DNA of 64,000 bases, from the NCBI GenBank assembly GCA_910578825.1, contig CAJTSB010000014.1, forward strand, positions 5,783 through 69,782, read 5' to 3'. The position numbers and the translations under genes are program-made. The notes below the pieces were generated by a model. That model worked only from the letters and a program-made list of their open reading frames with translations, was not told the DNA's origin and did not search any database. Positions 4,485 to 26,950 of this stretch are shown here, one piece after another (the stretch's first letter is position 1; each line of letters starts with the position of its first letter). The stretch is from an uncultured Lachnospiraceae bacterium. Lineage in GTDB: Bacteria; Bacillota; Clostridia; Lachnospirales; Lachnospiraceae.

Positions 4485-6068
4485 TTAGTTTTTGCTCTCT
4501 TCTCTCAGCCTCTTTAGATCCAGCATATCAAGACCTGCTGCCAGTTCCACAAGCTCCGTCTGTAGACAAAACAGATTTACCGCAGTGGTAAAAAATTCCA
4601 GTATTGCATTGAGGGCAATCGTAATCGCTATGGCTTCCATAGGAATTTTAAGCTGAACAAACAAAATCGTGTAGCAGGTCAGTGCGCCGCCAGGAACAGG
4701 AGGAGCCGCCACCGCAAGCACAATAGCAATGATAAAAGCTGTAACCAGCCACACCGGTGAAACCGCCACGCCATAGATTTCCGCCATGCAAAATCCCACC
4801 GCCAAAAACATGACGGATACTCCCGGCATAAAAATAACCTGCCCTAAAGAAACGCCGAAATTAACTATCCTTTTGTCAATCCCAAGATCTTTTTCACAGC
4901 ACTCCATATTCACCCCGAAAGCAGCAGAGGAAGACGCCGTAGTCAACGCAATCAAAAAGGTGGGCGCCATCTTTTTCAGCAGTATCCTGGGATGTACCTT
5001 CCTTCTCGTACACACGATCACAAGATACGCCGCCAGAAGAATCACATCTCCCATAAGCATTGCCAGAATCAGTTTATATGCAGGAAAAAATGCGGTAAAG
5101 TCATTTCCCAATATCATATTTAAGATGCTGCCGAATACAAACAGAGGCACAAAGGCTCCTACCGCCTCCATAATAAGTTGGACGATATAGTTGGACTGTT
5201 CCACAAAAGCCGCGGCAACCGTAGTTTTATTACCCAGCATCAGCATTGCCGTTCCGATCAAAACCGCAACAAAAATAATCTGTAGAGGATTCCCCTCTGT
5301 AAAGGGTGTAAAAAAGTTATCTGGAACAATGTCCAGAACCATCTGGAACAATTCGGAGAAATCAAACATACCTCCGCCTCCGACCTCAAAGGAAAAAAGC
5401 AGCATAGTTACCGCACAGGCAGGCAATGTCAGAAAGATGGTCATCAGCAGGAAACGACCAATCATCCTTTTCCCGATCCTGCCCATGGCAGCCATATCCC
5501 CGATACTGTATATTCCCCATATAACCGACAGAAACACCAACGGCCCTGCAATCGCCGACAAAAGTCCCATAAAGCGGTTAAATACAGGACTGATAAGATC
5601 ATTTACCAGAAATTCCCGAATGCCATCCGGCAGGAAACTGCACACCCCTCCGCACAAAACAGCCAGAACCACTGCCAGCACAAGTAAAACTATCTGGGAA
5701 CGCTCTTTCTTTTTCGGAGTAAATACAATCAGATTCCTGCCGTTTTTGTACTGCCAGGCAGGAACCACCCCCATATTGGCAAGCAGCCCCCGCAGTACCT
5801 CGCTCTGTTCTTCTTCTCCTGTGTCAAAAGGATCAAACCGCTCCCCTGTTATGGCAAGCTCCAGACGGACAGACTGAAAACGCCTGATGTATTTTTGCGC
5901 AAATACTGCCTCTGTGCCAAAAGTTTCCTGATATTTTAACAGCGTTTCCTCCAACGCAAGCCGGATTTGAAGAATATTTCTTGCATCCACGCCCCATTCC
6001 CTGAACGTTTCTTCCGCCAAATCAACTGTCTGTGCAATATTCTCATTACTAAGTTTTATCTTTTTCAC
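4485..6068 (-). CDS. Fusion protein: N-terminal degenerate GHKL (RsbW/SpoIIAB-like) domain + divergent DAACS/SDF-family (GltP-fold) symporter
   Basis: 527 aa. Residues ~125-527 carry the SDF hallmarks: HP1 TTASSSAAFGVNM, HP2 AAPPVPGGALT and TM8 NAILEFFTTAVN. Residues 1-122 align with the two other GHKL domains in the operon (see findings). The start lies 9 nt after the PP2C stop. Confidence 0.75.
   Translation of the reverse strand: MKKIKLSNENIAQTVDLAEETFREWGVDARNILQIRLALEETLLKYQETFGTEAVFAQKYIRRFQSVRLELAITGERFDPFDTGEEEQSEVLRGLLANMGVVPAWQYKNGRNLIVFTPKKKERSQIVLLVLAVVLAVLCGGVCSFLPDGIREFLVNDLISPVFNRFMGLLSAIAGPLVFLSVIWGIYSIGDMAAMGRIGKRMIGRFLLMTIFLTLPACAVTMLLFSFEVGGGGMFDFSELFQMVLDIVPDNFFTPFTEGNPLQIIFVAVLIGTAMLMLGNKTTVAAAFVEQSNYIVQLIMEAVGAFVPLFVFGSILNMILGNDFTAFFPAYKLILAMLMGDVILLAAYLVIVCTRRKVHPRILLKKMAPTFLIALTTASSSAAFGVNMECCEKDLGIDKRIVNFGVSLGQVIFMPGVSVMFLAVGFCMAEIYGVAVSPVWLVTAFIIAIVLAVAAPPVPGGALTCYTILFVQLKIPMEAIAITIALNAILEFFTTAVNLFCLQTELVELAAGLDMLDLKRLREESKN
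5703..6068 (-). other. Degenerate GHKL/anti-sigma-kinase-like domain (predicted pseudokinase) at the N-terminus of the symporter
   Basis: IRLALEETLLKYQETFG aligns with IDIAIDELFGNIAHYAY (the N-box Asn is replaced by Lys). ELAITGERFDPFD aligns with ITFIDNGTPYDPL (the G1 Asp is replaced by Thr). LRGLLANMG aligns with IGGLGIYMV (the G2 box is lost). The shared tail is YKNGRNLIVF versus YREGKNILKI. Confidence 0.6.
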
Positions 6069-6076
6069 TTCTCACA

Positions 6077-7516
6077 CTAACCTTTCATCCGTTTCCTATA
6101 TTCGAAACAAAGCATGGTAATGTCATCAAACTGCTCTGCACCGCCTACAAACGCATCAATATCCTTTTTTACGGCAGGAAGCAGCTCCGATGGCGGCAGC
6201 GACGCATTTGCGCAAAGCGCTTTCTCCAATCGTCCCATGCCATACAACTCGTTGTCCTTATTCATGGCCTCCGTCACGCCATCTGTATACTGGAAGAACT
6301 TATCCCCCACTTCAAGCTGCATGGAACCACATTTGTACTGTATGCCTTCTATGCCTGCAAGGACAAATCCTGCCCGTATCTCATAGGGTTCAAATACGCC
6401 ATTCTTTTTACAGATAAAGGGAATCTCATGACCTGCATTTACGAATCGGAATTCCCCCGTCACAAGATCCAATACACCCTCAAAGGCGGTGATAAACATT
6501 CCTTCGCTGTTTGATTCGCACAAAAGATCGTTTACCTCCGTGAACACCTCTCCCAGGTCTCTGCCTGACTGGGTGTGATCCTTAATCAGCGTTTTCCCGA
6601 TAACCATGAACAGCGCCGCAGGCACGCCCTTGCCAGACACATCCGCCGCCACAACGGCAAGGTGACGTTCATCCACCATAAAAAAATCATAAAAATCTCC
6701 GCCCACTTCCCTGGCAGGTTCCATGGCTGCAAACACGTCAAACTCCTCACGATCCGGAAAGGCAGGAAAAATACAGGGCAGCATGGACTGCTGAATATTG
6801 GTGGCAACATTCAGCTCCGCCGCAGTCTTCATGGTCTTTGCGCTCTGATTGATGGAATAAAAAATCATCCAAAATTCCACCACAAATATCAGACACACAG
6901 TAATGTACAGCAGAAAGAACCACGGAGTATTGGGATAAATCCCTACACCGTTTGACACAAGATTAATAAAATAAAAACCTACCACTGAGATAAACAACGC
7001 GGGAAGAAACACCATCATTTTCCCGCCTACCGCCTCAATGGTGCGATGTATGGTCTTTTTCAGGAAACAGGCATATAATATCGAAAATATGGTATAAACA
7101 AAAATCTTAATCAGGATAAAAAAAATCAGGTTCGGCGTATCATAGGGACTTTCCTTGATCAGTCCCAGGGCGGTGCCGAGAAATGTGTCGGTGGTTCCGC
7201 AGAACATAAAGGTACACACATTGGCGATCAGGCAGGCCATCAGGGAAATTGAAAGCTTGGTAGACCAACTGTCTTTGTACAAAAACTGCGGCACAATGCA
7301 TACAAGGGCGGAAAGTCCCAGTATCCCCACCGCGTCATTGTACAAATTAATGGAATAACTCACAAATGCCATGATATAGCCTATGACAGCCCCGATGGTC
7401 CAGAAAACAGCCCGGATTATCCCTTTATATTTCGGGGTAAGCGTAATCCCCGTCAGCAGTCCCGCAAAAACCGACGCCATAAAAACCGCAAAACTCCAAA
7501 GTGCAATTGATACCAT
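6077..7516 (-). CDS. Multi-pass membrane PP2C/SpoIIE-family serine phosphatase (RsbU-like)
   Basis: 479 aa. The N-terminal ~225 aa are very hydrophobic (about 7-8 TM segments). The C-terminal PPM domain has NIQQSMLP, GGDFYDF, ADVSGKGVPAAL, YTDGVTEA and FDDITMLCF, so all metal-binding Asp motifs are present. Confidence 0.85.
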   Translation of the reverse strand: MVSIALWSFAVFMASVFAGLLTGITLTPKYKGIIRAVFWTIGAVIGYIMAFVSYSINLYNDAVGILGLSALVCIVPQFLYKDSWSTKLSISLMACLIANVCTFMFCGTTDTFLGTALGLIKESPYDTPNLIFFILIKIFVYTIFSILYACFLKKTIHRTIEAVGGKMMVFLPALFISVVGFYFINLVSNGVGIYPNTPWFFLLYITVCLIFVVEFWMIFYSINQSAKTMKTAAELNVATNIQQSMLPCIFPAFPDREEFDVFAAMEPAREVGGDFYDFFMVDERHLAVVAADVSGKGVPAALFMVIGKTLIKDHTQSGRDLGEVFTEVNDLLCESNSEGMFITAFEGVLDLVTGEFRFVNAGHEIPFICKKNGVFEPYEIRAGFVLAGIEGIQYKCGSMQLEVGDKFFQYTDGVTEAMNKDNELYGMGRLEKALCANASLPPSELLPAVKKDIDAFVGGAEQFDDITMLCFEYRKRMKG

Positions 7517-7531: not shown

Positions 7532-10500
7532 TCAAAATAAGTCCATCCCACTTAAGGCGGACAAATATTTACTTAGATATTCCTCGGTAATATCGCTCCA
7601 GCCTTCCAGCAGGTTTTGTAAATACCCGCCGGTAAGTTCGTTCACAACAGGTATCTCATAGCGATCTCCCATTTCTTCATTCGTCATAAGCCCCTGTAAC
7701 TGTTCCCTGCCTTCTGCAGTCTGTTTCCGTTTCCGCAACAGCTCCAGGAATTCTTTGTCCGGCAACGCCTCTACGACATAACCCAGCTTTTTGGCTACCC
7801 CAAACAAATCGGCAAATTTTAATTCTACAGGCGGATACACATGGAAGACCGCCGTTTCACCCTCCGTCGCGGTCAGTACCACGATGTTATGCGCCGTTTC
7901 ATCTACCGGTGAAAAATTCACGCTCCCCTCATACACCGTTAAGGGCACAGCTCCCAGCTTAATATAGGAAGAAAACTGGCGGGTAAAGGCATTGGAATGG
8001 AGATTCATCTGGAATTCCCCGTCCTGTATGCGCCCCTGAAGATTCCCGATGCGCATAATTTTTATGTTCAGCCCATCCTTCACTGCCGCCCGCAACAGCT
8101 CATACTCCGCCATATATTTGGAGTAAATATATTTATTATGTATTTCCTGCCCGATATAAAAATCGGATTCACAAAAACATTCCTTGCAGGCATTCCCCGC
8201 CGTCATACCCGCGACGCTGATGGTGGAAATCTGGCAAAGCGTCGCCTGCTCCTTCCTTGCAAAACGGATCAGGTTTCTTACTCCCTGCGTATTGATCTTT
8301 TCCAGATTATCCCCATAAGAAAAATGGGAAACATTCGCAGCAGAATTGATAATGGTGTGGATTGGAACCGGACACTCCTGGGCAAAAATATCTGGATTGG
8401 CGATATCTCCTTCTACCACCAGCCATTTATCTTCATAACTTTCGGAAAAATCTTCTTCCGCGTAATAAAACAGGGAAGATTTCACGCGTTTCAAGGCACT
8501 GAGGGTCTTCTTAGGCCGGGAAAGACAGACAATTTTGCCGCATATATCCGGATTCTTTAAGAGATCCACCAGAATGTGTATCCCAAGATATCCCGTCGCA
8601 CCCGTTAAAAGCACATTTCCGAGAAACTTACGTTTTACCTCCTTTTGCGTATGTGCGGCAAGGTATTCTCCCATTCTTTTGTAATCCAGGGACGCTATGT
8701 CAAATCCCTTATCCCCGCTGCCGTCTGTCTTTTTAAAAATCTTCTCCAGCAAAAGAGCAGGCGTGGGATACTTGTATAAGTCCCCAAATTCCAGCTGATT
8801 CTCGGCAAGTCCCAGCTTTTCCTCGATTTTAAGCATTACAGACACCGCATTCAGGGAATCTCCTCCCAGTTCGAAGAAATTGTCATCCAACCCGACCTGC
8901 TCTATGGACAACGTTTCTCCGAAAGCTTCGCAGACCCATTTTTCCCTCTGCGTTTGCGGTTTTCTATAGACCCGGACATATTCTATCGGTTCCGCCGCCA
9001 GGGCTTTCAGGTCTGTCTTGCCATTGGGCGTCTGGGGCATGGCATCCAGTTCCTTTAACACATCCGGCACCATATAGGAGGCAAGACGCGTTATCATATG
9101 TGCCTTTAATGCCTTCGGGGTCACTGCCCCTTTCGATAACGCCGTATAAAATCCAACCAGATGTCCGGTCTTTTCGATTTTCCGTATCATACAGCAGCAC
9201 GCCGTCACACCCGGAAATTCTCCCATCACATTTTCAATTTCCGACAATTCTATGCGCAGCCCCCGCAGCTTAACCTGCCTGTCGTTCCTGCCGCAATACA
9301 TAAGCTTTCCTTCATTTGAAAAATATCCCAGATCCCCTGTCCGGTACAGTCGGATGCCCCTCCAGTTAATGTATTTTGCTGCCGTTTCCTCTGGCATGGC
9401 CTGATAACCAATACCCACGCCGTTCCCATATATACAGATTTCTCCTGTCGCACCGAAAGGCACCGGATTTCTCTCTCCGTTTAAGAGGATAATGCCCATA
9501 TTGGCGATCGGCATACCGATGGAAACTGCATCTCCCGCCTCGGTGATGGTGGCTCCGATCGTAGTTTCCGTGGGACCGTAACCATTGTAAATCCGCACCG
9601 GACTAATTTTTTCCAGCCGTTTGACAAGGTTTCCCGGAAGAACCTCCCCAGCCGCCAGGATGGCTCTCACACCTTCCATCGCCTTCAGAAAAGCTTTATT
9701 TTCCAGATATGCCGTAATCCGGGAAGGCGTACAGTGAAGGATATCCGCTCCGTGACGCAGGATATGTGCAGACAGTTCCCCTGCGTCTGTGATTGCTTTC
9801 TCATTGCCCAGCTCCACAAACAGACCGTTCATCAAAGGCACAAAAATTTCAAACAGAGAAATGTCAAAACAAATAGATCCAATAGCCACAATGCCGTGAC
9901 AGTTTCTGGTAATATCCCGGTTAAATGGATTGTTATCCGGGTGAACAATATTGGCTATGCCCCTGTGAGAAAGCATCACCCCTTTCGGGCGTCCTGTAGT
10001 GCCCGACGTATAAATCATATAGGCAAGATCCTCCTGCTGGATTGCCGGTAACAGTGCCAAATCCTCCTCCTGGGATAACAGGGTATCAATTTCTATGTAA
10101 TCATAATTCCCGGCAATTTCTACATCCCCGGATGAAATCAGACAAGCCGCCCCGCTGTTTTCCATAATATAGGAAATCCTGTCCGCAGGATAACCGGGAT
10201 CAGCCGGAATAAAGGCTGCACCCGCTTTTGATATGCCAAGAATCGTCGGAATCAGGCGATAATCCCGCTTTAACAGAAAAGCAATTTTATCACCGCTCTT
10301 TACCCCAAGACGCCTGAGCCCACAGGCAATCCTGTTACTGATTTCTTCAAGCTGCCCGAATGTAAAGGCATATTCTCCCGCATACAGGGCCGGAGCATCT
10401 TTATACTGTTTCGCCGCACGCCGAAACAGGGAAGGAATCGTAAGATCCCTTTCAACCGGAAATGTTTTTCCTTTCATCGAGGTGATTTTCCTGTATTCCG

Positions 10501-11827
10501 TTTCTCCCATTGCTTTGATATCAGAAAGTTTCTTCATTTCCTGTCCTGCTGTATCTGCAAGTTCCACAGGCTCCTTTGCACTGCCCGCTGTTCCCTGCGC
10601 TGCAATCTCCAAAATGGCATCACAAAAATATCCTGCCTTTTCCTCTGTATAGACGTTTTCCCGATAATCCGGCTGTAGATCCAGTCCATCCTTTTCATTG
10701 CGAAAAATATTAAAGGTCAGGTGGTTCGACATTTCCCCTGCCACACTAAACCGAACGCTATAAGGAAAGTCTGCACAAAAAGAAAAGCGGTAAAAATTAA
10801 ACACATATTCTGAAAGGGATTCCCCTGTCAGGTCTTCATCACGCAGGACAGAAAGAATCCGGTTAAAACCATCTCCCTTATGGAGCGACGCCTCCCCTGA
10901 CGCACTCTTTACTTTCCGGCAAAGCTCGCCAAAGGTATCCATCTCTTCCACCTGCACCCTAACCGGAACGAGCAGTGTGTAACACCCCAGCGTATTCATC
11001 TGCCCGGACACACGGTTTAAACGGGGCATCAAAAACACCGCATCCCTTTTGCCCGTAGCCCGGGACAGATATAGGGCATATGCTGCTGCAAAAATATAAG
11101 GAATCGAAACCTCCTCTTTCCTGCCAAATTCTTCCATTTGCTTTAATAGTTTTTCCGGTACGCTGACCCGGCAGCTTCCATATCTGTTTCCATCCGCTTT
11201 CTGAGAAAAAACAGCGCTCTCAAACTCTGCGCCGGCAAAATAGGAACTCCAGAATCCGTCTTCCTTCCCGCTTTCGCCATTATCACCCTCCCCCGCATTG
11301 TTGTTTTCGCAGGCAGACCCCAAAACGTTCTCCGGGAAAAATACTGATCGTTCAATCCTTTTCCCCGCAAGCGCATCCAGCATTTTCTGTGCAAACAGGC
11401 TCATGCCGTAGCCGTCGATGATCACATGATGGAAACGCACATACAAAAAGACGCCTCCCTCTGAAAGAGGGATGACCATTGCCTGATACAGACACTGTTC
11501 CATATTGAACGGTCGCCTGTCCATGGCCGCCATATATTCTTCCGCCAGATCCGCAATCCGTTCCGTTTCAATACTACATTCAGAAATCTTCCTTTCCCCC
11601 CGTGAAATCACCCACTCCTCTTCCCTGAGACTAAGAGAAACGGCAAAAATATCCGCGCTGTCAAGCACAGTATCCGCCGCCTCCTTTACTCTCTGCGAAG
11701 AAAAATCCGGCAGATGGAGTTTCAAAGAAATCGTATTCCGCGCGCTGCCTGGACAGACCTGCTCCGTCATTACAATCTGGGTCTGTGATAAATTAAATCT
11801 GCTCATTTGTTCTTCTGCTGTCGTCAT
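7532..11827 (-). CDS. Non-ribosomal peptide synthetase, C-A-T-R (terminal thioester reductase)
   Basis: 1431 aa. The C domain (~10583-11827) has HHVIIDGYG. The A domain (~8993-10465) has MIYTSGTTGRPKG, FDISLFE, NGYGPTETT and PNGKTD. The T domain (~8738-8965) has FFELGGDSLNA. The R domain (~7535-8635) has LLTGATGYLGIHIL and YIYSK (YxxxK). Confidence 0.92.
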   Translation of the reverse strand: MTTAEEQMSRFNLSQTQIVMTEQVCPGSARNTISLKLHLPDFSSQRVKEAADTVLDSADIFAVSLSLREEEWVISRGERKISECSIETERIADLAEEYMAAMDRRPFNMEQCLYQAMVIPLSEGGVFLYVRFHHVIIDGYGMSLFAQKMLDALAGKRIERSVFFPENVLGSACENNNAGEGDNGESGKEDGFWSSYFAGAEFESAVFSQKADGNRYGSCRVSVPEKLLKQMEEFGRKEEVSIPYIFAAAYALYLSRATGKRDAVFLMPRLNRVSGQMNTLGCYTLLVPVRVQVEEMDTFGELCRKVKSASGEASLHKGDGFNRILSVLRDEDLTGESLSEYVFNFYRFSFCADFPYSVRFSVAGEMSNHLTFNIFRNEKDGLDLQPDYRENVYTEEKAGYFCDAILEIAAQGTAGSAKEPVELADTAGQEMKKLSDIKAMGETEYRKITSMKGKTFPVERDLTIPSLFRRAAKQYKDAPALYAGEYAFTFGQLEEISNRIACGLRRLGVKSGDKIAFLLKRDYRLIPTILGISKAGAAFIPADPGYPADRISYIMENSGAACLISSGDVEIAGNYDYIEIDTLLSQEEDLALLPAIQQEDLAYMIYTSGTTGRPKGVMLSHRGIANIVHPDNNPFNRDITRNCHGIVAIGSICFDISLFEIFVPLMNGLFVELGNEKAITDAGELSAHILRHGADILHCTPSRITAYLENKAFLKAMEGVRAILAAGEVLPGNLVKRLEKISPVRIYNGYGPTETTIGATITEAGDAVSIGMPIANMGIILLNGERNPVPFGATGEICIYGNGVGIGYQAMPEETAAKYINWRGIRLYRTGDLGYFSNEGKLMYCGRNDRQVKLRGLRIELSEIENVMGEFPGVTACCCMIRKIEKTGHLVGFYTALSKGAVTPKALKAHMITRLASYMVPDVLKELDAMPQTPNGKTDLKALAAEPIEYVRVYRKPQTQREKWVCEAFGETLSIEQVGLDDNFFELGGDSLNAVSVMLKIEEKLGLAENQLEFGDLYKYPTPALLLEKIFKKTDGSGDKGFDIASLDYKRMGEYLAAHTQKEVKRKFLGNVLLTGATGYLGIHILVDLLKNPDICGKIVCLSRPKKTLSALKRVKSSLFYYAEEDFSESYEDKWLVVEGDIANPDIFAQECPVPIHTIINSAANVSHFSYGDNLEKINTQGVRNLIRFARKEQATLCQISTISVAGMTAGNACKECFCESDFYIGQEIHNKYIYSKYMAEYELLRAAVKDGLNIKIMRIGNLQGRIQDGEFQMNLHSNAFTRQFSSYIKLGAVPLTVYEGSVNFSPVDETAHNIVVLTATEGETAVFHVYPPVELKFADLFGVAKKLGYVVEALPDKEFLELLRKRKQTAEGREQLQGLMTNEEMGDRYEIPVVNELTGGYLQNLLEGWSDITEEYLSKYLSALSGMDLF

Positions 11828-11833: not shown

Positions 11834-12136
11834 TTATTCCTTATCAATGGTCAGAATATCTGCAAACCCGGTCACATCAAATATCTCCATAATGGTATCG
11901 TTGACATGGGTCACACGCATGCTGCCCTGTTTATTCATGGTTTTCTGCGCTCCTAAAAGAACCCTCAGCCCTGCTGACGACAGATAATCCAAAGACTGCA
12001 TATCAATGGTCAGTTCTTCTATTCCGTCAATAGAACCTTTGATAGCTATCTCAAGCTCCGGCGCTGTATTGGTGTCCAGCCTTCCTTCCAGTGCGAGATA
12101 TAAACTGTTTCCCTTTTGTGTTTTTGTAATTTTCAT
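11834..12136 (-). CDS. STAS-domain anti-sigma-factor-antagonist-like protein (SpoIIAA/RsbV family)
   Basis: 100 aa. The motif DYLSSAGLRVLL aligns with SpoIIAA FMDSSGLGVIL, placing Ser54 (codon 11975-11977) at the phospho-acceptor position. The stop lies 6 nt before the NRPS start. Confidence 0.85.
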   Translation of the reverse strand: MKITKTQKGNSLYLALEGRLDTNTAPELEIAIKGSIDGIEELTIDMQSLDYLSSAGLRVLLGAQKTMNKQGSMRVTHVNDTIMEIFDVTGFADILTIDKE

Positions 12137-12259
12137 GTTTGGCCTCCTCTTTCAACAGTAATAAATTGTTTCATCCTGCTGCCAGTCAGCCTATTATAAC
12201 AAATTATATCCATGATTTAAGGCATTTGGCATGGTTCGTATTTTTTACGGCACAATTTG
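12137..12259 (-). promoter_or_regulatory. Only sizeable intergenic gap inside the NRPS operon; possible internal promoter
   Basis: This 123-nt AT-rich gap lies between the kinase stop and the STAS start. The minus strand contains two TATAAT hexamers (GGATATAATTTGTTATAATAGG) but only weak -35 matches. There is no hairpin terminator. Confidence 0.3.
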
Positions 12260-12667
12260 CTATATGTTCTTTTTGATCTTTAATATATTTTTTCCCTCCC
12301 GGTATTCATAGGAAATATCGTCCATGCTCTTTTTGACCATATAAATGCCAAGACCTCCAATCTGCCGCTCTTCCGCAGAAAGGCTGATGTCCGGCTCGCG
12401 TGTTGCCAGAGGATCGTAGGGCGTTCCGTTATCGATAAAGGTAATCACCACTGCCAGAGGATTTTCCGTCACCTCCACGCGGACAGTGGCAGTGCCTGTT
12501 TTTGGATGATAGGCATAGTGAGCAATATTCCCGAACAGTTCGTCAATGGCAATATCTATCTGCATCTGCACCTTCATGGAACATTCCAGCCGCTCTAACT
12601 GCTGATTCACAAATTCTGTAACCTTTTCAATATTTTCAACTGTTGCGTCAATGATTAATTCCTTCAT
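12260..12667 (-). CDS. RsbW/SpoIIAB-like GHKL serine kinase (anti-sigma-factor type, HATPase_c_2-like)
   Basis: I moved the start to MKELIID at 12667, which is preceded by GGAGGGAATGGGAG. This removes the overlap with the PPTase gene. The N-box is DELFGNIAHY, G1 is IDNGTPYDP and G2 is IGGLGIYMVKK. Confidence 0.8.
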   Translation of the reverse strand: MKELIIDATVENIEKVTEFVNQQLERLECSMKVQMQIDIAIDELFGNIAHYAYHPKTGTATVRVEVTENPLAVVITFIDNGTPYDPLATREPDISLSAEERQIGGLGIYMVKKSMDDISYEYREGKNILKIKKNI

Positions 12668-12693
12668 CTTCTCCCATTCCCTCCACTTTCCTT

Positions 12694-13491
12694 TTATTTC
12701 CACCTGCATCCCGATGGCGTCCTGCTTTCAGTTCTTCCACTTTCCTTCCAGAAACACACTGCCGCACAATATTCCCCCAGCCGGTATTCCCTGAATTCAA
12801 ACTCCCCGGGACAGAGAGCCCGCGCCTCATCGTTCTTCCGGCAAAGGACAATCTTTCCCTCCGACGAAATGGTAATCTCAAAGGCGTCCAGAGAAAGCAT
12901 AAGTCCTGTCCCCACCGCCTTCAAAAAACTCTCCTTTAATGTCCACAACCGGGTAAACGCCTCATCCTGCCGTGTACTACCCTGCTGCCCGACAATAAAA
13001 TCATATTCTTTCCGGGTAAAAAAACGTTTTGCAAGATCCAGATCCGCCTTCTGCAACGGTTCAATGTCGCACCCTGTTTCCACACCTGCAAACACCGCCA
13101 ACGCCTTGTTGCCGGAATGGGACAGATTAAAATGAATATGCGGAAACCGGGGCAGATAAGGCTTTCCATTTTCCCTGTAGGACACCACTGCCTCCCGCTT
13201 AGACAATCCCCAGGCGGACAGCCCCTTATCTACTAAAATTCCCGCCCCCAGTGAAAGCCGTTTATCCCTCAAAAGAACATAGGAATCCACTTTTTTCTGA
13301 CGTTGATGAGACATGGTTTGGTAATAGTTGAAAAAGGTTATCTCATTCTCCAGCTCTCCCGTATCCATCCAATACAGAACGGCTCTGTCTTTTTCCAGCG
13401 GCACAGGGACATTGGACTGTCCGGCACAGGGAGGACATATAAACATCCTGCGCAGGCTGTGCAACACAGGCATCCGTCTCTCTGGTTTCAT
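12694..13491 (-). CDS. Sfp-type 4'-phosphopantetheinyl transferase
   Basis: 265 aa with FNLSHSGNKALAVF, GCDIE and WTLKESFLKAVGTG. The ATG at 13491 overlaps the MATE stop (ATGA), suggesting translational coupling. Confidence 0.85.
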   Translation of the reverse strand: MKPERRMPVLHSLRRMFICPPCAGQSNVPVPLEKDRAVLYWMDTGELENEITFFNYYQTMSHQRQKKVDSYVLLRDKRLSLGAGILVDKGLSAWGLSKREAVVSYRENGKPYLPRFPHIHFNLSHSGNKALAVFAGVETGCDIEPLQKADLDLAKRFFTRKEYDFIVGQQGSTRQDEAFTRLWTLKESFLKAVGTGLMLSLDAFEITISSEGKIVLCRKNDEARALCPGEFEFREYRLGEYCAAVCFWKESGRTESRTPSGCRWK

Positions 13492-15275
13492 CCTTCCTGC
13501 ATCCTTTCTGGTTTCGGTTCCATTTTCAGTTCCATAATCGTGTTATTCATATTCAGTACCCTCAGATACTGAAAGTCAGACATAATTTTCCTGATCAGGG
13601 CAATTCCGCCCAAGGCAATCTTCCCACTTTCCTCTTCCTGCGCCTGATATTCCATGGGATTAAATGGTACGCCGTCATCCCGAATCCGAAGAAGATAACT
13701 GCCGTCCTGAATGGTAAAGCTGATGTCGATAAAGTTTCTGTTATTCCCACGATAGCCATAACGGATAATGTTGGCACAAATTTCCTCAAGAGCCAGCCCG
13801 ATCAGCTTTGCGTCCTTTTCCCGGATGCCATTTTCCTCACAGAAGACGAACAGGGCGTCCCGGAGCTTTATCACATCTTCCAGGTGGTTTTCTATCGAAA
13901 AATCCAGACAGGTTTCCTTCGTTACTTCGGGAAGCATATATCTGCCGCCGCAAGGAAATCTACCGGTATGCTGTCCTACCATGCGATAAAGGACACACAG
14001 CAGGATTGTAAAGGCTTCGCTTATCACAGCCGCCACACACACACCGGGAAGCCCCATCCAGACCATTCCGACCAGCGTAAAAGGAACCACCACGGCAAAT
14101 CCCTGTAACACCGTGATTACAGTGGAAAGTCCTGGCTGCAGAATTGTCTGGTAATAAGACATTAAAAACTTATTATACACATAAAACAGGAAACTAAATG
14201 CAATGATACGTAGCTGCGGTATACACATTTCCAGCATCTGGCCTCCTGTGATGCCGAATAGCGCAGCAATCCACCGAGGAAACAGAAGAAACAGTAACAA
14301 AAGAGCTGCAATGGCAAAATAACTGTATGCCAGCACTTTTTTACACAGCGCACGAATCCCATAATAGTCCCTTTCCCCATAAAGTATTCCCGCAATATTG
14401 GGAATCAGGCCGATCACGCCTCCCACGCACAACTCTGCGATCAGAACCGCATTCGCACAAACAGAATAGACCGCCATGGCGTCATTTCCCAGAAACCGTA
14501 CGATTGCTGAATTGACGATTACAGACTCTAACGCAGACATCAGCGTGAAGGCCGCGCTGGGCACTCCTGCCTTCGCCGCCATCTTCACATAGCGTAACGA
14601 TTGCCTGGTATGTACCGAAAGCTTTAACATCCTGTTTTCAGACCGGAAATAAAAAATCACCGTCACCATGCCCACCAGATAACCGACCACCGTAGACAGG
14701 GCGCTTCCTGCCATTCCCATGTTGAAAACTTTAAGGAACAGAATATCCAGCGTCAGATTTACCCCATTAGCAATCACAAAAAGTGTACTCCCCAATTGGG
14801 GATGATTATCTGCATTCATAAAATAACAGAAAAGAATTGCAATGGTCAGAACCGGGATTCCGCCGAAGTTTACCGCAATATAAGGCTCTGCCAGCGCCGC
14901 CATCTGCTCATTTCCGGCAAGGGAATCAGCCAGCATTCCTGGCAGAAAAGGGGTAAGCAGCGCAAAGAGAAGGGATATGGCACCTCCCGCCGCCAGGGAA
15001 ACTGTAAATATGCCTCCCGCCTCCTTCAGCTTACGCTTTCCCAAAAGCACCGACGCCTCAGCCGCTCCCCCCATAGCCAGCATTAACGCTGGCATCTGAA
15101 GGAAAAGCAGCACTGGCATGGAAAGTTCAATAGCAGCCATAGCTTTGGGTCCTAAAATATTACCCACAATCATGCCGTCTACCACATTGCCAAGCTGCAT
15201 GGCCACAGTCATCAGCACTCCAGGCAGAATATACTGGTGAATCTTTTTATGAATTAAGTACGCATTTCGCTCCAT
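13488..15275 (-). CDS. Fusion protein: MATE-family efflux transporter + C-terminal GHKL (RsbW-like) domain
   Basis: 595 aa. Residues 1-~445 form a 12-TM MATE-like body (compare the second MATE at 25583-26926). Residues 447-595 form a soluble GHKL domain. Confidence 0.8.
   Translation of the reverse strand: MERNAYLIHKKIHQYILPGVLMTVAMQLGNVVDGMIVGNILGPKAMAAIELSMPVLLFLQMPALMLAMGGAAEASVLLGKRKLKEAGGIFTVSLAAGGAISLLFALLTPFLPGMLADSLAGNEQMAALAEPYIAVNFGGIPVLTIAILFCYFMNADNHPQLGSTLFVIANGVNLTLDILFLKVFNMGMAGSALSTVVGYLVGMVTVIFYFRSENRMLKLSVHTRQSLRYVKMAAKAGVPSAAFTLMSALESVIVNSAIVRFLGNDAMAVYSVCANAVLIAELCVGGVIGLIPNIAGILYGERDYYGIRALCKKVLAYSYFAIAALLLLFLLFPRWIAALFGITGGQMLEMCIPQLRIIAFSFLFYVYNKFLMSYYQTILQPGLSTVITVLQGFAVVVPFTLVGMVWMGLPGVCVAAVISEAFTILLCVLYRMVGQHTGRFPCGGRYMLPEVTKETCLDFSIENHLEDVIKLRDALFVFCEENGIREKDAKLIGLALEEICANIIRYGYRGNNRNFIDISFTIQDGSYLLRIRDDGVPFNPMEYQAQEEESGKIALGGIALIRKIMSDFQYLRVLNMNNTIMELKMEPKPERMQEG
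13491..13937 (-). other. GHKL/anti-sigma-kinase-like domain fused to the MATE C-terminus
   Basis: The N-box-like segment is LALEEICANIIRYGY (Asn retained). G1-like is LRIRDDGVPFNP. G2-like is ALGGIALIRKIM. The tail YLRVLNMNNTIMELK parallels YEYREGKNILKIKK of the stand-alone kinase. Confidence 0.7.
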
Positions 15276-15295: not shown

Positions 15296-18200
15296 TTATA
15301 TCTTTCCGTCAAAAAATCCCAGGGTTTCCAGCGCCTTTAAAGCATTGTGCAGATAATCCTTATCCGGCATGGGCCACTTAAAGCCCAGCCTGTAGAGTAT
15401 TTTGGTGGTAAAGCTGTTGTCTGCATCAATATAAACGCTTCCTTCCTCACGGTCTCCCGGCAGATAAGCAATCAGTCCGGAGATCAACTGGTTTTTATCC
15501 TCATCCTCCAAGGCCTTCTGCAAGCTTGCGCCAAACTCCTCATCACTTACGGTTTCTATGGCAATTCCCAGGCTGTTCATCTGCTCCACTACATCCGCCA
15601 TCTGAATCACATAACTACTGTAGGCATGGAACACACTGAAATCCCCTTCAGCCCCAGTAAGCCTTACAATCGCCTCCGCCGTAGAATCAATCGGGGAAAA
15701 CTCCGCCGGCATATCCAGCTGGGAAACCGGGAACTTTCCAAGAGCCACATACCCGCGCAGGGTACGCATAAACCCATTGGTAACGGAATTGATCTGGAAT
15801 TCTCCGTCACTGACACGGCTCATGAGATTTCCTACCCTTATCACCCGTCCTTTCATGCCTTTTGCGACGGCTGCCAATACTGCCTTTTCCGCACGGAATT
15901 TGGTATCAATATATTTGTTGGTGATACGCTGCCCGAAATCCAGTTCATTTTCATGGATTTTCTTTTCCTCCGGGAACATCTGCCCCACGTTTTCTCCTGC
16001 CACGCTTACGGTGGAAATCTGAATTAATTCCCTTCCCGTATCACGACACAGGCAGATCAAATGAAGAACGCCCTGATAATTAATCCGCTCCAAAGTATCA
16101 TCTGCGGAGAAGTGTTTTACGCACGCCGCACAATTTATCACCCGGGCAAAATCATATTGTTTCAGGAATTTTACCTTTTCCGCGTCCGTGATATCCCCTT
16201 CAATGACAACAATCCGGTTTCCGAAAAGTTCCTCATAAGGATTGCTGAAGTAATATACAAGCATACTTTTCAGCCTTTTTTCTGCTGAAAGAGCGCTGCC
16301 CCTCCTCAGCAGGCAGTATATGGTATTGTCCGTGGTTTCCACCAGCGTTTTTAAAATATGGGCGCCAAGGAAACCTGTGGCTCCTGTTAGAAGCACGTTG
16401 CCTACGGCTGACGGACGTACCTCATCTACATATTCCGGCGTATTATGCGAAAGAATCTGTCCAATGGAATCCTGCCCTAAATCCTCTTCCGCCGCCTGTT
16501 CTTCCATACCACTTTGCCCATCCTGGTTCTCGCGTTCCATGAGATACCGTTCCAGAGCCAGAGGGGTCTTATATTCAAACAGATCCGCATAGGAAACTCC
16601 AATCCCTGCACTCATGCATTTCATCGCCACTTTAGACGCTGAAAGGGAGGTTCCGCCATTTTCAAAGAAATCATCTTCTATACCGACTTTTTCCACTCCG
16701 AGAGCCATGGCAAAGATTTCACATAATCTGCGCTGTAATTCCGTGCGGGGAGCTACATAATTTCTGCTTTCCTGGGTGTAGTCCGGTTCCGGCAGCGCCC
16801 GTTTGTCAACCTTGCCGTTGTTGGTAAGCGGCAGTTCGGGCAGCTGCATCAACACCCCTGGTACCATATACGGCGTTAAGTATTTCTGCATAAAACAGGT
16901 CAGTTTCTGACTATCCACCTGCTGTTGCGCCACAAAGTAACCGCACAGGAACTGATTGGAATCCTTTTCTTTTACAAGCACAACACTTGATTTCACGCCA
17001 GGATACCGATTCATCACATTTTCAATCTCATCCAGCTCCACCCGCAGTCCCCGGAGTTTTACCTGATTGTCCATTCGCCCCATAAATTCTATCTTGCCAT
17101 GATGGTTCCATCTTGCAAGATCACCGCTTCGGTATGCCTTTTTACCCTCAAAGGTGATAAATTTATCTGCCGTCATTTCAGGTTTGCCCACATATCCCCT
17201 GCCTACGCCGTTTCCGATAATGAGCAGCTCTCCCGGTACTCCGGCGGGAAGCAGGTTCCGGTATTTATCAATCGCCATCATCTTAATATTTGCCATAGGT
17301 CTTCCTATGGTAATCTTCGTCCCGGTCACCTGCTCGAAGGCACATCCGATTGTGGTTTCCGTGGGACCATACCCGTTAAATATGATGGGCGCTGTTCCAA
17401 GGGACATGATTTTCCCATAAAGAGCATCAGGAAACGCCTCTGCGCCCACATTAAACACCTTTATCTGTGACAGCGCTTCCTTCATTTCCGGCATATCAAT
17501 AATATTGATAAGGAAGGAAGGCGTACAAGTCATCATATTCACTCCATGAGCCAGAACCAATTCCGAAAGCGCAAAAGGATTATGGATTTCCTCTTCATTG
17601 GCCATACACACTGTAATACCGTGATACAGGGGGATGCACTCCTCCAGTATGGACACGTCAAAGGTAATGGCAGCAAAGGCCAGGGATACCGTGGCATGAT
17701 CTATATAGGACTGCGCCTCCACATTGTAGGGATTGCCATCCACATAATTCACAAGGTTTTGGTGCTCAATCATAACACCTTTGGGTTTGCCGGTGGAACC
17801 AGAAGTATAAATGCAATAGCACAGATTTTCCGGTCGGATGTCTATCTGAGGATTTTGAATATTCCCCCCTTCCTCCAAAAGCTCTTCCAGACAAAGGACT
17901 TTTGCCGCAATCCTGCCCAAAAGCTGGCCGCGCTGGCTAATTAGTTCCTTCGGCATGATCACAAACTCCGCACCGGAATCCTCCAGTATATAAATAATTC
18001 GCTCATCCGGATATTCCGGATCAATGGGCACAAAAGCCCCTCCAGCCTTCATGATTCCCTGCCTTACGGCATACACATCCACCGTCCGGGGCATCATCAC
18101 GCCCACCATCCGCTCCATGTGCAGCCCCATGTCCAGCAGGTAGTTGGCAATCTTGTTGGCATTTTCATTCAGTTCGCGGAACGTCCGCATTTCCCCGTCC

Positions 18201-21200
18201 GCAATCACAGCCGTCTTGTCCGGGTGCAGCGCCACCTGACGTTCAAAAAGGACATTGGCCGTTACCTGTTCCACCGGATAGTCCGTTTCATTGTACCCTT
18301 CCAGTTCCCGGCGGGCTTCGCCGCTTAACAGGGACACTTCCTTTAAGAACCTCTTATTACAAAATTCCTCCACTGCAACGGCAAAACTATCCACCAGTCC
18401 CGCAATGGTGCTTTCCTCGTACATATCGCTGCGGTACTCGACCTGGTAACAGATTTCATCTTTATTAACCGCCACATCTACAGACAGAGGCGCTTTCGCC
18501 GTATCCAGACGCAGCTCCTCCAAAATTGCTTTTTGCCCGGCAATCTCCTCAAACTGGAAATCATCTCCCTGAAATGCAAAGAGAATATCCGCCTTAATTC
18601 CATATGCCCTACTGATCTCTGCGAAAGAATAAATATCCGCATTCATACTGTTCAAAAGCTGCTCCCCGGTTTCTTTCAGATAACTGTCGATTTCCTGCTC
18701 TCCGTCAATATTACAGTACACAGGAAGGGTTTTCACCAACATACTGATGACCGAAGCCAGCCGTGAATCATTCCTTCCATTATAAATCGTGGTAAACACA
18801 GCCTCATCCTTATATACATACCGTCCTGTCACGAAACCAAAGGCAGCGGTGAACAGCGTATTCATGGTAACCTGCTTTTCCTCACAGAACGCCCGAAGGG
18901 CATCCATATTCACCCTGATATCCCTTCTGTACAATCCCACCGATGCGGTCTCATTCTTATCCCGTGCAGGAAGGAAATCCGTATCACAGCCGGAAAACAC
19001 AGAATCATAGTATTCCCTGGCACGGATATACTCTTCTCCCTGCAAGGCTTTTTGCTCCACTAAAGCCGCCTCGAAACCGGAAAAGCTTTCCGCCGTCAGT
19101 TTCCTGCCTTCATAAGCCGCGTTCATATCGCGGATAAAAATACCGCAGGATGTTCCGTCACTGATAATATGGTGAAAATCCAGGAACAGATAATTTCCCT
19201 CTTCCGTCTCATACAGCTCTATACGGAACAGTCTTTCCTCCATAAGCTGATACGGGCGCACCAGTTCTTCCCTGTTCAGTCGGTTGTTTATTTCTACCTC
19301 AAAAGACGCATTATCGTTTCGTTTCTGCCGGATATCACCTTTTTCATCCATAAATAATGTTGTCTTGATATAAGGATGAGCGGCAACTGCCTCCTCTGCC
19401 GCCTTTTTCAGCCTGGGCAGTTCCACCTTTTCATCCAGGCAAAACAGAAACGGAATATTGTAGATCGTGCTTCCCGGATTGGCGGCACACTCTACAAAGA
19501 TACCATTCTGGGTCTGGGTCAGAGGGTAAGCATCCTGTATCTCAAAAGTTTCCCCTTCTCCCCTATTCCGAAGAAGTTCCTCCAGCTTTTCCACCGTATT
19601 ATATTCCTTTAAATCCTTATTTCGCACCACCACGCCTTCAAAAGTTTTGGAAAGCAATGCGTTTAGCCGCACCGCGCCGATGGAGGTAAGTCCGGCCCGA
19701 TAAATGTCCGTGGACGCGCCAAATTCCCTGTGTCCAATGACTTCCGCTACGCATTCAAAAATCCTTTGCTGCACGGGGCCTGCCGGCTCCTTGCGTTCTT
19801 CTTTCTTTCGTTGCGGCATGGGAAGGGCTTTTTTATCTACCTTCTGATTCTGATTCAAGGGAATTTTGTCAATCTGCATAGTAACGGCCGGAACCATATA
19901 GGGCGGCTTGCTCTCCATAATAAACGCATTCATCGCCTCCACATCGACCTGCACCGCAGCTACCACATAAGCGGCAATATACTTTCCGCCGCCTGGCTCA
20001 TCAAAAGCAACCACCGTTGCGTCTGAAATTCCCGGGAACTTCCGTATGATTTCCTCCACCTCGGTAAGCTCAATACGGAACCCCCGAATCTTCACCTGTC
20101 CATCCCGGCGTCCGATAAACTGGATATTTCCATTCGGCAGGAAACGCACAATATCCCCTGTGTGATATGCCCTGCGGTATCCTTCCGCATCAGAGAAGGG
20201 ATTTTCAGAATATGATTCCGCCGTCTTTTCCGGTCGATTGAGATAGCCTCTGGACACCTGGTATCCTGAGATCCACAATTCTCCCGGAACCCCTGCCGGA
20301 ACCCTTCTCCCGCAGCTGTCCACCACATACAGTTTCATATTGGAGAGCGGTTTGCCGATGGGAAACTCTTCCTCATAGCGTTCCAGACAATAGGCAGTGG
20401 ATAAAATCGTACATTCCGTAGGTCCATACACATTATAATATTTTGTGCCTCCGGCAGGCGCAAAAGGAGTCAACGCCTCTCCGCCCATGGACAGATGCTT
20501 TAAATTTCCGCACTGTACGCTTGTGGCAAATGCCCGCCCAATCTGAGTAGTCATAAAGGCATGGGTCACTCTCTGTTTCTCAAAATACCTGTTTAACTCA
20601 TTTAAATCCAGACGAATGGACTGATCTATAATACATACCGACGCCCCGCCGGTGAGTGCCGGATAAATATCCATCATATGAGCGTCAAACCCATAGCTGG
20701 CATAAGCCGCCACCCTGCCTTCCGGCTGCAGATCGTAATATTCTCTGTACCACTGGCAGAACGCCATCAGATTCCGGTGCTCCAACATACATCCTTTGGG
20801 CACGCCGGTGGAGCCTGAGGTATACAAAAGAATAAACAAATCCTCCGGTTTGGGCGGACAGGGAATCTCATCTTTCTCCACTTTCGGAAGTTCAGGAATA
20901 TCTTTTGTCAGCAGAATCTTCCCCTGATATCCTTCTACCAGATGTAAAAGCTCTTCCTCGGCAATGAGGAGTTGTGCGTCTGCATCCTGAATCATAAAAG
21001 ACAACCGCTCTTTGGGGTATGTAGGATCCAGAGGCTGATATGCCGCCCCCGCTTTTAAGATTCCCAGAGAGGCCAGAACCATATGCTCACATCGCGGAAT
21101 CAGCACGGACACTGTCTGTTCCCTGCCAATGCCCATTCTCGCAATATAAGCGGCCAGACGATCCGTAATCTCATCTGTCTGAGCATAGGTATAAGTTTTG

Positions 21201-24200
21201 TCCAGATAAATAACTGCAATGTCATCCGGTCTGTTTCCGACCTGTTCCCGGAACAGATCCACAACCGTTTTTGTCCTCTCAAAAGGAACTTCCGGTCCAT
21301 GAAATCTATCCAGCAGCTGGACGTCGGATTCCGAAACCAGAGAAATCTGATGCAAACTCTGACAGGAAATCATGCCCTGCAGTACCTGCACCAGCATCCT
21401 TGACAAGCCCCTTGCCGTCTTTTCACTGTATAAATCCCTGCGGTAATCTAAACTAATCTCATAACCGCCCTGCCCCTTCATTACCATCACGGAAATATCC
21501 GCCTGCACCTGCCCGGTTGAAAGAGGCTGCGCCGGACACCTTTTTCCATCCAGGGACAATCCTTTCAGCATTTCTCCCTGATAAACAAACAAAATATCGG
21601 AAGCAATATCGTAATCCCTTGCCAGTTCTTCAAAAGATATCACATCGTGTTCCATGGTTTCATAAAAATTCTTCTGGAATCCCTGTAAATACTCCTCCAC
21701 GACCATGCTTTCTTCCCAGGACTGATATATGGGAAGCGTCCGCACAAACATTCCCACAGATTCCGCCAGCTCTGTACAATGCCTTCCATTGTTGACGGTA
21801 CAGAACAGACTCCGGTTTCCTCCTGTATACTTTCCAAGGGCATAGGCAAAAGCCCCCAGAAACAGCGTATTTTCTGAAATTCCCTTCTGCCTTGTAAACT
21901 GCTCCACCGCCATAATAGAAAGCTCTTCGCTGAGAGACATCCGCACGCTGCTGCTACTGGCGCCGGGCGATTTCATCCTGTAATCTTTCAACAGGGTCTC
22001 CCCCATCTCCCCATCATCCAGTTTAGACTTAAAGTATTCCCTGGCCGCCTGATACTCCGGCGTTTGTTTCACCGTTTCCTCATAAACGGACACATCCATC
22101 AGGGATATCTCCTCCTCCTTTGGCTCTTCGCCTTTGTAAAAGGTAGATATTTCTTCCAGAAATACACATACCGAGGTACCGTCAAAAATCAGGTGGTGTA
22201 CGTCAAAGAAAAAATATCTGCGGGTTTTATCACTGCCGTCCGCCATACGATATAAGGCCATGCGGTATAAAGGCTCCTGCCCCATAACAAAAGGACGAAC
22301 AAAGCCTTTCTCTGCTGCTTTCATGTCCCTGGCCGTACACTCCTGCACAGTTGCATCTAAAAATTCCGGGCACAGTTCCATAAGGGGGCTTCCCTCTCTC
22401 TGCACAATCTTCACTCCGAAAGCGGGATGCATGGCAACCGCCTTTTTTACCGCCTCCTTAAACCGGATCATGTCCATATGCTCCGGCAGCTCACAGCACA
22501 TGGGAATATTATACATCGTGCATTCCGGTTCACTAACGCACTCCAGATAGACCCCCATCTGAGAATCCGTAAGTAACCATTCCTTCCGTTCCCCATTATA
22601 CTCCCGTATTTTGTCCCATTCCACAGTACGCTCCCGGGCGCCTTCCATTTCCCGGTCTTCCTGCAACAGCAAAGCAATCTTCTCTGGCGTTCTGCCCTTT
22701 AAGACCATTCCCGGCGTCAGGGAAAAATCCGCAAGACATTCTACCAGTTTCAACACATTGATAGAATCCCCGCCCAACTGGAAAAAGTCATCGCCGATTC
22801 CAGTTCTTCCACAGTGCAGGATTTCCTCAAAGGCTTCACATATCCGTTTCTGCATCTCATTTTCCGGCTCTCTGTACACCCCTTTGTACTCAGAAATTCC
22901 CGGTGGCAAAAGCGCCGTCCTGTCCAGCTTTCCGTTTACATTCTTCGGAAGCTCCTCCATTCTTTTCAGAAAACGGGGAATCATGTAATCCGGCAGCGTC
23001 TCTCTCAGGCAGGCTCTGATATCCTCGGGCGCAACCTCCTCTCCTGCCACATAAAATCCACACAGGTAATTCTGCCCGTTTTCATCTTCAAAGGCTTTTA
23101 CTACGGCATTTTTCACTCCCGGAACTGCCGACATACGAATCTCAATTTCTCCCGTCTCCACACGCTGTCCGTTGATTTTTACCATCCAATCCCTGCGATT
23201 TACATAAATAAAATTCCCATCCGGCAGTTTCTTTCCAATATCCCCCGTATGCAGCAGAACCTTTCCGTCCTCCTTAAGCTCAAATGTCCGGGCGGTTTGT
23301 TCTTCCATATTCAGATAACATTCGCCAAGAACGCCAAGAACACAAATTTCTCCCTCTTCGCCATCAGGAACTTCCCTGCCCTGCTCATCCAGCAAAAACA
23401 TCTCCACGTCCTGCGCAGGCTTCCCAATCGGGGTATTCTCCATTGGTTCCTCTACTTTAAAAGCTGATACCATGCTCGTTGTCTCACTGCAGCCATATAG
23501 ATTGTACAGCACATAACCGTCACCACTTAACATGGATACCCGCTCACTTCCGGTCATTACCTTTTTCAGCGCTTTCCCACGATTCTTAAAATAACGCAGC
23601 ATCTGCGGGCTGATAAAACCGCAGGTAATTTCCTTTTTTGCATAATAAGACTCCAGCAGGCGCACATCCCTGCGAACCTCCTCGGAAAGCATATGGACGC
23701 AGCCGCCGCTGCTTAAAATAGCATAATACTCCAGCACCAACACTACAAAAGATAACGGCGCAGTGGCCGCCAGCCGTTCCTCTTTCCCGAAACCAAGGGT
23801 TTCGACATTCCTCATTGCTCCCATATAGAGGCTCCCATGGCTGTGGACAATTCCCTTGGGACGACCGGTGGAACCCGATGTATAAATGATCATGGCTCTG
23901 TCCCTGTCCGCCACTGTATATTCCTCAATCGGCTCATAGCGCCCGATATCCTCCATCCACTCACCATCAATCGTACATACTGCTTTGCAGTCTTCCCGGA
24001 TATAGTCAATTCTCTCCGGCGGATATTCCGGAAGCAGCGGCACATAAACCGCCCCGGCCATCATGATTCCGATTTCCGCTGCCACATATTCCATCCGCCT
24101 GTCCATACATACTATCACTGCCTGCCCGGTTATATCTCCCATCTCCAAAAGCTTTGCCGCAACCCGGCCGCTCCTACATGCAAGCTCCTGATACGTCGTA

Positions 24201-26926: not shown

Positions 26927-26950
26927 AACGTCCTTTCCTGATTTACACAT

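Follow-up and report, generated by a model that had tools for sequence, protein, structure and literature searches.

Why should an exporter of the MATE family end in a domain of the kind found in anti-sigma factors? The question is raised by a gene in a stretch of 64,000 nucleotides from an uncultured Lachnospiraceae bacterium (GenBank assembly GCA_910578825.1, contig CAJTSB010000014.1, positions 5,783 to 69,782 of the forward strand); this whole stretch is called the window here, and coordinates refer to it unless a related locus is named. The gene, at 13488..15275 on the minus strand, encodes a 595-residue protein which by its open reading frame, Pfam, AlphaFold2 and Foldseek is a MATE exporter with a C-terminal GHKL domain, hereafter the tail. 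To our knowledge, and in the papers searched, research on MATE pumps has mainly concerned gene expression and ion coupling; partner switches classically regulate sigma factors, and few other partner-switch outputs have been described. The answer we favour, with a probability of roughly 0.42, is that the tail serves as a docking site for the operon's own STAS protein and that the exporter would be the output, or a node, of a partner switch without a sigma factor.

An earlier note on this DNA had taken residues 447-595, which are exactly 13491..13937 of the minus strand, to form a soluble domain. HATPase_c_2 (PF13581) indeed covers residues 462-578 (66.1 bits, cut-off 27.4; E 4.1e-18), and the folded SpoIIAB/RsbW-type domain of the structural model spans residues 456-584 (13524..13910). 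MatE (PF01554) is matched in two stretches of the same protein (E 1.8e-19, 70.4 bits against a cut-off of 24.9). The MATE part scores 96.4 bits against the NCBIfam matE subfamily TIGR00797, under the cut-off of 147.4, and all matches of the protein to the named MATE equivalogs of NCBIfam fall far under their cut-offs. Judged by these scores the protein is a divergent MATE branch belonging to no named subfamily. The tail likewise reaches neither of the NCBIfam equivalogs RsbW (20.6, cut-off 145) and SpoIIAB (13.8, cut-off 135); it is a PF13581 domain, and should not be called RsbW or SpoIIAB.

The full-length AlphaFold2 model, for which 42 diverse family members served as alignment input, has a mean predicted local distance difference test score (pLDDT) of 89.9 and a predicted template-modelling score (pTM) of 0.88. 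Transmembrane helices extend to residue 437 and are followed by a linker (438-455) and an alpha/beta domain (456-584) in the order strand, two helices, two strands, lid, helix and two strands. Residues 541-556 of the lid are of low confidence (mean pLDDT 59-65 over residues 541-560), and the tail modelled alone has a pLDDT of 87.5. The core (residues 1-446; 13938..15275) has 12 helices, seen in hydropathy as 11 clear peaks and a weak first helix, and superimposes in Foldseek on PfMATE, DinF-BH and VcmN with target-normalised template-modelling (TM) scores of 0.83-0.85; ClbM, the MATE of the colibactin cluster, gives 0.65. Lysine and arginine are enriched in the even-numbered loops of the core and in the tail. 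Because there are twelve helices and these residues concentrate in the even-numbered loops, the tail is placed in the cytoplasm, as the earlier note had argued from the topology of MATE proteins in general, and it is modelled as neither extracytoplasmic nor disordered.

The ten best PDB matches of the tail model are all SpoIIAB, RsbW or UsfX (E 2e-8 to 7e-6), headed by the SpoIIAB entries 1l0o, 1til and 1th8 (E ~2e-8, TM 0.70-0.77). RsbW 6m37 aligns with a target-normalised TM score of 0.84 and UsfX of Mycobacterium tuberculosis (8ih8, 8jzt) with 0.75-0.80, also target-normalised, whereas histidine kinases are much weaker matches (E >1e-3). The structural similarity to SpoIIAB and RsbW on which the earlier note depended is therefore present, and in these models the tail is a folded, cytoplasmic GHKL domain of the SpoIIAB/RsbW type.

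The best structural matches are anti-sigma factors complexed with sigma F or with antagonists, and this would suit a tail that acts as a membrane-tethered anti-sigma factor, holding a sigma factor at the pump and freeing it upon STAS binding. We nevertheless consider such a role highly improbable. The operon and most related loci contain no sigma gene, and no sigma factor domain was found among the window genes scanned (~800-48300). A local sigma target was sought in the related loci (designated by L numbers) and rejected; pairs of extracytoplasmic function (ECF) sigma and anti-sigma genes lie downstream in L001 and L040, but they are not conserved, with a sole other match in L039. A word-index search with the tail alone yielded, besides gene fragments, one apparent sigma-GHKL fusion, P0145 (L003, 913..2021). 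It is an assembly chimera from an ENA scaffold with runs of N, in which a spoIIAB/sigF-like region runs into the final ~90 codons of a MATE-tail gene, and for this reason it gives no evidence of a link to sigma factors.

Partners for the tail are close at hand. The earlier note had supposed that the domain could reach cytosolic STAS or kinase proteins, and both are encoded in the operon of the MATE-tail gene. The genes share a strand and are separated by gaps of 4-123 nt; their order is non-ribosomal peptide synthetase (NRPS) 1, MATE-tail, 4'-phosphopantetheinyl transferase (PPTase), RsbW-like kinase, STAS, NRPS 2 and PP2C. The kinase (12260..12709, minus strand; PF13581, E 2e-20) is a stand-alone RsbW/SpoIIAB-like serine kinase with complete N, G1 and G2 (GGLG) boxes, all invariant in 27 homologues. 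The STAS protein (11834..12136, minus strand) consists of a single domain of the anti-sigma antagonist type according to Pfam and TIGR00377 (73.2, above the cut-off of 53.45), and the motif around its phosphorylatable serine, DYLSSAGLR, is kept in 30 homologues. The phosphatase (6077..7516, minus strand) is a PP2C of the SpoIIE type (Pfam SpoIIE at residues 283-473, E 3.7e-44), and its hydrophobic N-terminus (residues 1-225) is, judged by eye from the sequence, apparently a polytopic membrane domain. A complete partner-switching set of STAS, kinase and PP2C is embedded in this NRPS cluster.

The same genes accompany the MATE-tail gene elsewhere. STAS, PP2C and kinase genes are all present within 10 kb in 23 of 55 loci, with one or two of them in 8 more, and partner-switch genes occur in six of the nine informative distant loci. 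At least seven different gene orders join the MATE-tail gene with partner-switch genes. L008 has PPTase, PP2C, kinase, ABC importer, STAS and NRPS 2; 19 loci have MATE-tail, STAS, a second MATE with a degenerate tail (MATE2), GH3, PP2C and kinase; Eubacterium plexicaudatum ASF492 (L040) has MATE-tail, STAS and kinase and no NRPS; the Erysipelotrichaceae locus (L056) has NRPS, MATE-tail, STAS and a sensor-PP2C::kinase fusion; L061 has a HAMP-PP2C::kinase fusion, NRPS and MATE-tail; and L067 has MATE-tail, NRPS, kinase and STAS. The STAS gene is often the next gene after MATE-tail (L018, L021, L040, L056). Two proteins, P0158 (L058, 888..3248) and P0269 (L069, 1447..3720), are naturally occurring triple fusions, in which MATE and tail are joined to another HATPase_c_2 domain, canonical and RsbW-like; a STAS gene directly follows the first, and STAS, kinase and PP2C genes lie near the second. 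Without any NRPS, the association of MATE-tail with STAS and kinase persists in L040 and L069. Since the association recurs across rearrangements, in gene fusions and at low identity, we take the tail to be functionally part of a partner switch, and this is the main argument for our reading.

The ASF492 locus (4365..7078 and 16334..17278 of L040) is of some interest in itself. NRPS genes are absent, the trio of MATE-tail, STAS and kinase is kept and is followed by an ECF sigma gene, and defence-type genes, namely a TOTE AEP primase, a helicase/PLD and SIR2, flank the trio.

The fusions and the paired exporters also bear on a different role for the tail. SpoIIAB and RsbW function as dimers, and one may imagine a dimer of the tail and either the soluble RsbW-like kinase or the second MATE's degenerate tail, so that the kinase is held at the pump or two pumps are joined while STAS binds the canonical kinase only. 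The tandem arrangement of MATE, tail and RsbW-like domain in P0158 and P0269 is compatible with this, as is the pairing of an intact with a degenerate tail in the 19 loci mentioned above (L018, L021, L024, L025, L028, L031, L035, L036, L041-L046, L050, L053, L054, L057 and L003, the last a second copy of the L041 arrangement and counted among the 19). There the second MATE (~594 residues) is encoded ~2.5-5 kb past the first MATE gene, after STAS and before GH3, PP2C and kinase. Many loci, however, are without a second tail or a soluble kinase within 10 kb, and a tail that serves only as such a scaffold appears quite unlikely to us. The intact and degenerate tails of MATE1 and MATE2 may act as an asymmetric pair.

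The fusion of MATE and tail is widespread and under selection. A HMMER scan of 1.84 billion representatives returned 677 matches below 1e-30. The architecture is common to 131 or more clusters at 50% identity, most of them with a reductase-terminated NRPS gene as neighbour, 131 of the best 150 matches being 545-625 residues long at 25-45% identity; among the matches listed, alignments extend to about residue 580-590 of the query. The fusion occurs in 54 species-level genomes, nearly all of them mouse-gut Lachnospiraceae, with Sporofaciens musculi, Petralouisia muris, Otoolea muris and Eubacterium plexicaudatum ASF492 as cultured carriers, and one Erysipelotrichaceae metagenome-assembled genome (MAG) carries it at 33% identity. 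In more than 120 clusters the tail is kept end to end (67-95% identity). In pairs with unsaturated synonymous divergence (dS), the ratio of non-synonymous to synonymous divergence (dN/dS) is 0.03-0.08 in the tail versus 0.11-0.13 in the transmembrane core. Purifying selection on the tail is strong and at least equal to that on the core. The end-to-end conservation across clusters and genomes together with these low ratios shows that the fusion is not due to chance.

These numbers modify one opinion of the earlier note, which had called such a module on an efflux pump unusual. The literature supports that opinion: a full-text search found no description of a MATE-HATPase_c_2 fusion or of a partner switch within a gut NRPS cluster, and in the literature searched no dedicated cytoplasmic regulatory domain is described on a bacterial MATE. 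The sequence databases speak the other way, since with at least 131 clusters the fusion is not rare, and JGI already labels such proteins 'Na+-driven multidrug efflux pump/anti-sigma regulatory factor'. The MATE-tail fusion is a large uncharacterised family and no one-off. Two family members, P0198 and P0326, are assigned by their source records to a Methanobrevibacter MAG and a Pseudomonadota MAG, which is due either to mis-binned contigs or to transfer outside the Firmicutes.

The boxes of the tail are informative as to whether it would bind nucleotide or act as a kinase. The asparagine of the N-box, the DxG-type G1 and the partial G2 reported by the earlier note are all present: the N-box EEICANIIRYGY (residues 497-508; 13752..13787) with E498 and N502, the G1 box RDDGVPFNP (532-540; 13656..13682) with D533 and G535, and the reduced G2 box LGGIALIRKI (555-564; 13584..13613), all on the minus strand, the G556/G557 of the last being kept in the close family. 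A PDB sequence search with residues 447-595 found SpoIIAB 1l0o (E 2e-4), with EEICAN aligned on SpoIIAB E46...N50 and RDDG on RDEG, so that E498/N502 correspond to E46/N50 and D533-x-G535 to D81-x-G83. In 52 close homologues drawn from the 54 species-level loci, E498, N502, D533 and G535 are invariant, and E497, D534 and the G556-G557 pair are invariant or nearly so. The second glycine of DxGxG is replaced by proline in the tail. The window's stand-alone kinase shows the same replacement (DNGTP), although the consensus among its homologues is DNGVA. The tail has only LGG as its G2, where the stand-alone kinase has the full GGLG, and its lid, counted between G535 and G557, comprises 21 residues as compared with a wide-family median of 18. 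From these residues, ATP binding by the subfamily of the window tail is plausible.

The wide family, sampled by 132 representatives of 50%-identity clusters, is less strict. The N-box glutamate is retained in 95%, N502 in 70%, D533 in 82%, G535 in 95% and G557 in 64%; N502, D533, G535 and G557 are all kept in 52%, at least one of them is lost in 48%, and N502, D533 and G557 are jointly lost in 13%. Positions with no catalytic role in GHKL proteins surpass the catalytic ones (D517 99%, Y570 95%, N577 100%). The tail of the second MATE is degenerate, with N502 changed to T, D533 to Y or N and D534 to S. It is because of this degenerate paralogue, the losses in 48% and 13% and the 95-100% retention of D517, Y570 and N577 that binding rather than catalysis seems to be the conserved role, and protein contact is more likely than catalysis to be the function common to the whole family. 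Arg20 of SpoIIAB, which we take to be a docking residue, was considered as a marker of STAS or sigma binding and found uninformative, its equivalent position being variable in the tail and, by eye, also in the stand-alone kinase.

If the tail docks STAS, the following course of events may be envisaged. The pump would export what the NRPS makes, probably a short peptide aldehyde or a compound derived from one, and the tail would be the membrane-anchored GHKL partner of the STAS protein. Upon a membrane or envelope signal, PP2C would dephosphorylate phosphorylated STAS, and unphosphorylated STAS would then dock on the tail, much as SpoIIAA does on SpoIIAB, and change the transport cycle; in the subfamily of the window this docking would probably depend on bound nucleotide. 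The soluble kinase, and possibly the tail too, would re-phosphorylate STAS and reset the switch. The exporter would thereby replace the sigma factor as the output, STAS binding either activating or inhibiting export. It is conceivable, at somewhat short of even odds, that through its GHKL tail a secondary-active MATE is either what a phospho-STAS switch directly acts upon or the sensor that feeds it, and that natural-product export is thus gated post-translationally. Gating of this kind may extend across a family of 131 or more clusters at 50% identity that occurs mostly in NRPS clusters of gut Firmicutes, with MATE1 and MATE2 perhaps as an asymmetric pseudo-dimer.

Several observations weigh against the docking of STAS as the purpose of the tail. 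With a complete kinase already encoded in the operon, STAS phosphorylation does not require the tail. No partner-switch gene is seen in the fetched flanks of 24 of the 55 loci, although only ~1 kb is visible upstream of the 9-kb NRPS and some contigs end early, and by dN/dS the tail is equally constrained in loci without visible partner-switch genes (L007, L012). Furthermore, the invariance of the ATP-binding residues in the subfamily suggests that there is more to the tail than passive docking.

That invariance of the N-box and G1 residues speaks for a transceptor, in which the tail is an active serine kinase tuned by the transport state and phosphorylates STAS. The level of phosphorylated STAS would then steer the soluble RsbW-like protein as well as some target encoded elsewhere, such as a sigma factor, and export flux would feed back on expression of the cluster. 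L065 agrees with this in that STAS and PP2C are present and the MATE tail is the sole GHKL domain found in the ~22 kb read, and the pTM of 0.88, together with the confident placement of the linker, would allow for a fixed contact of tail and core that relays conformational change. It must be noted, however, that most of the family has a reduced G2 and a short lid, that catalytic residues are lost in the paralogous tail and in about half of the wide family, and that no sigma factor is conserved nearby. On balance a signalling kinase of this type seems unlikely.

The loci without visible partner-switch genes, in which the tail is nevertheless constrained, would be accommodated if the tail were an autonomous sensor that binds ATP or ADP and gates export in line with cellular energy, with no part for STAS. 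In that case the partner-switch genes would have another target, for instance an NRPS or the GH3 enzyme, and it is true that these genes flank NRPS 2 in the window and GH3 in other loci. Against an independent sensor stands the link of MATE-tail with STAS and kinase, which is maintained without NRPS (L040, L069), in gene fusions and at 25-45% identity, and we regard such a sensor as very unlikely. The remaining probability belongs to an inert tail or to some function outside those considered here.

Should the tail indeed dock a phospho-regulated STAS protein, this would constitute a new gating mode for secondary transporters and a new class of partner-switch output, and it would offer a handle on the release of peptides, probably peptide aldehydes, from abundant mouse-gut Lachnospiraceae. 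The docking hypothesis is directly testable with one domain of 150 residues and one protein of 100 residues.

Comparison with known systems sets the proposed switch in perspective. With SpoIIAB/RsbW and their partners SpoIIAA/RsbV the locus shares the fold of the tail, the Glu/Asn of the N-box, the Asp-x-Gly of G1 and the STAS, PP2C and kinase genes in the operon. It differs in that the tail is fused to the C-terminus of a secondary transporter with 12 transmembrane helices and no sigma factor is nearby, and in that G2 reads LGG instead of GxG/GGxG and most of the family has a short lid (21 residues in the window, median 18). UsfX, the anti-sigma F factor of M. tuberculosis, is also a structural match to the tail, and it reportedly lacks kinase activity and binds its partners without phosphorylating them. 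By analogy, degenerate tails may work like UsfX; UsfX is soluble and binds a sigma factor, whereas the tail of the window is membrane-attached through the pump and keeps its ATP-binding residues. The 12-helix core superimposes on PfMATE, DinF-BH and VcmN, and ClbM, though less close in structure, has a similar gene position adjoining a synthetase. Among the matches listed, the solved MATE chains are ~400-510 residues long and align with the transmembrane core alone, so that a cytoplasmic domain as large as the tail appears to be absent from all of them. None of the solved structures listed by Foldseek has both a MATE core and a GHKL domain.

Among partner switches, SiaABCD, SypA/SypE and BtrUVW presumably act on targets that are not sigma factors, and we take MlaB-MlaF to be a STAS-regulated transporter. 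As in our reading of the window, the non-sigma switches use an RsbW-type kinase and a PP2C to control STAS phosphorylation, and the target is something other than a sigma factor. What these systems act on is an enzyme or an ABC ATPase, or else the transporter carries the STAS domain itself, while in the exporter described here it is the anti-sigma-like GHKL half, not the STAS half, that is fused to the transporter. HenR/All4160 of Anabaena is a further partner switch with a non-sigma output (preprint 10.64898/2026.04.08.717354), and SLC26/SulP transporters with STAS domains have been reviewed (PMC8256260).

The cargo of the pump is suggested by its neighbourhood. As the earlier note had stated, the gene sits directly after the large NRPS and is coupled to the PPTase gene: 20 nt separate the NRPS stop from the MATE-tail gene, which has a GGAGG-type ribosome-binding site, and an ATGA overlap of the MATE-tail stop with the PPTase start is read directly in the DNA. 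An NRPS gene lies directly upstream of the MATE-tail gene in about 48 of the 55 loci, and on this ground the earlier proposal of a dedicated exporter for the NRPS product gains support. Of the distant members of the family (25-45% identity) with a locus that was read, most are also flanked by NRPS genes (L056, L058, L059, L061, L065, L066, L067). NRPS 1 (15296..24502, minus strand) is listed as an open reading frame of 3068 residues with the organisation A-T-C-A-T-C-A-T-R, ending in a reductase, and its Pfam domains are three AMP-binding, two Condensation, three PP-binding and NAD_binding_4. NRPS 2 (7532..11827, minus strand; Pfam) has the organisation C-A-T-R. The Sfp-type PPTase (12694..13491, minus strand) is recognised by Pfam ACPS and AASDHPPT_N.

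Two gene starts probably differ from those listed. The first ~68 residues of NRPS 1 look non-coding by eye, the homologue in L001 has 2978 residues, and a perfect 16-bp hairpin with a T-run (24488..24454) lies within the first codons of the open reading frame; translation probably begins near 24298 or 24283 and not at 24502. The hairpin may end transcription of the gene for a CAP-domain protein upstream. The kinase start as listed (ATG, 12709) falls within the end of the PPTase gene. No conservation is seen over the first 14 residues, and the 27 homologues begin with MKEL, which points to the methionine at 12667 as the probable start. In the 123-nt gap between kinase and STAS a promoter-like site (12203..12232, minus strand; 10/12 matches) could be an internal promoter for STAS, NRPS 2 and PP2C. 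The promoter and terminator scan as a whole found fewer promoter-like sites than in shuffled sequence and no convincing internal terminator, and supports no operon boundary.

Other genes upstream of the cluster merit a brief mention. The CAP-domain protein is encoded at 24524..25507, between NRPS 1 and an ordinary MatE gene (25583..26950, minus strand) whose product of 455 residues has no tail and is 23% identical to the fused one. The conserved cytoplasmic loop LYGE(K/R)DYxG of the fused protein (residues 297-305) was considered as a candidate docking site for the tail; it aligns with an ordinary MATE 'GA..' loop of this plain MatE. A LysR regulator gene (27027..27914, plus strand) adjoins the ordinary MatE gene and is divergent from it. 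Further upstream (27955..34264, minus strand) are a MacB/FtsX-type ABC pair (1024 residues and an ATPase of 220 residues) and a BlaR1-type M56 peptidase sensor (837 residues), which may have a role in resistance or sensing.

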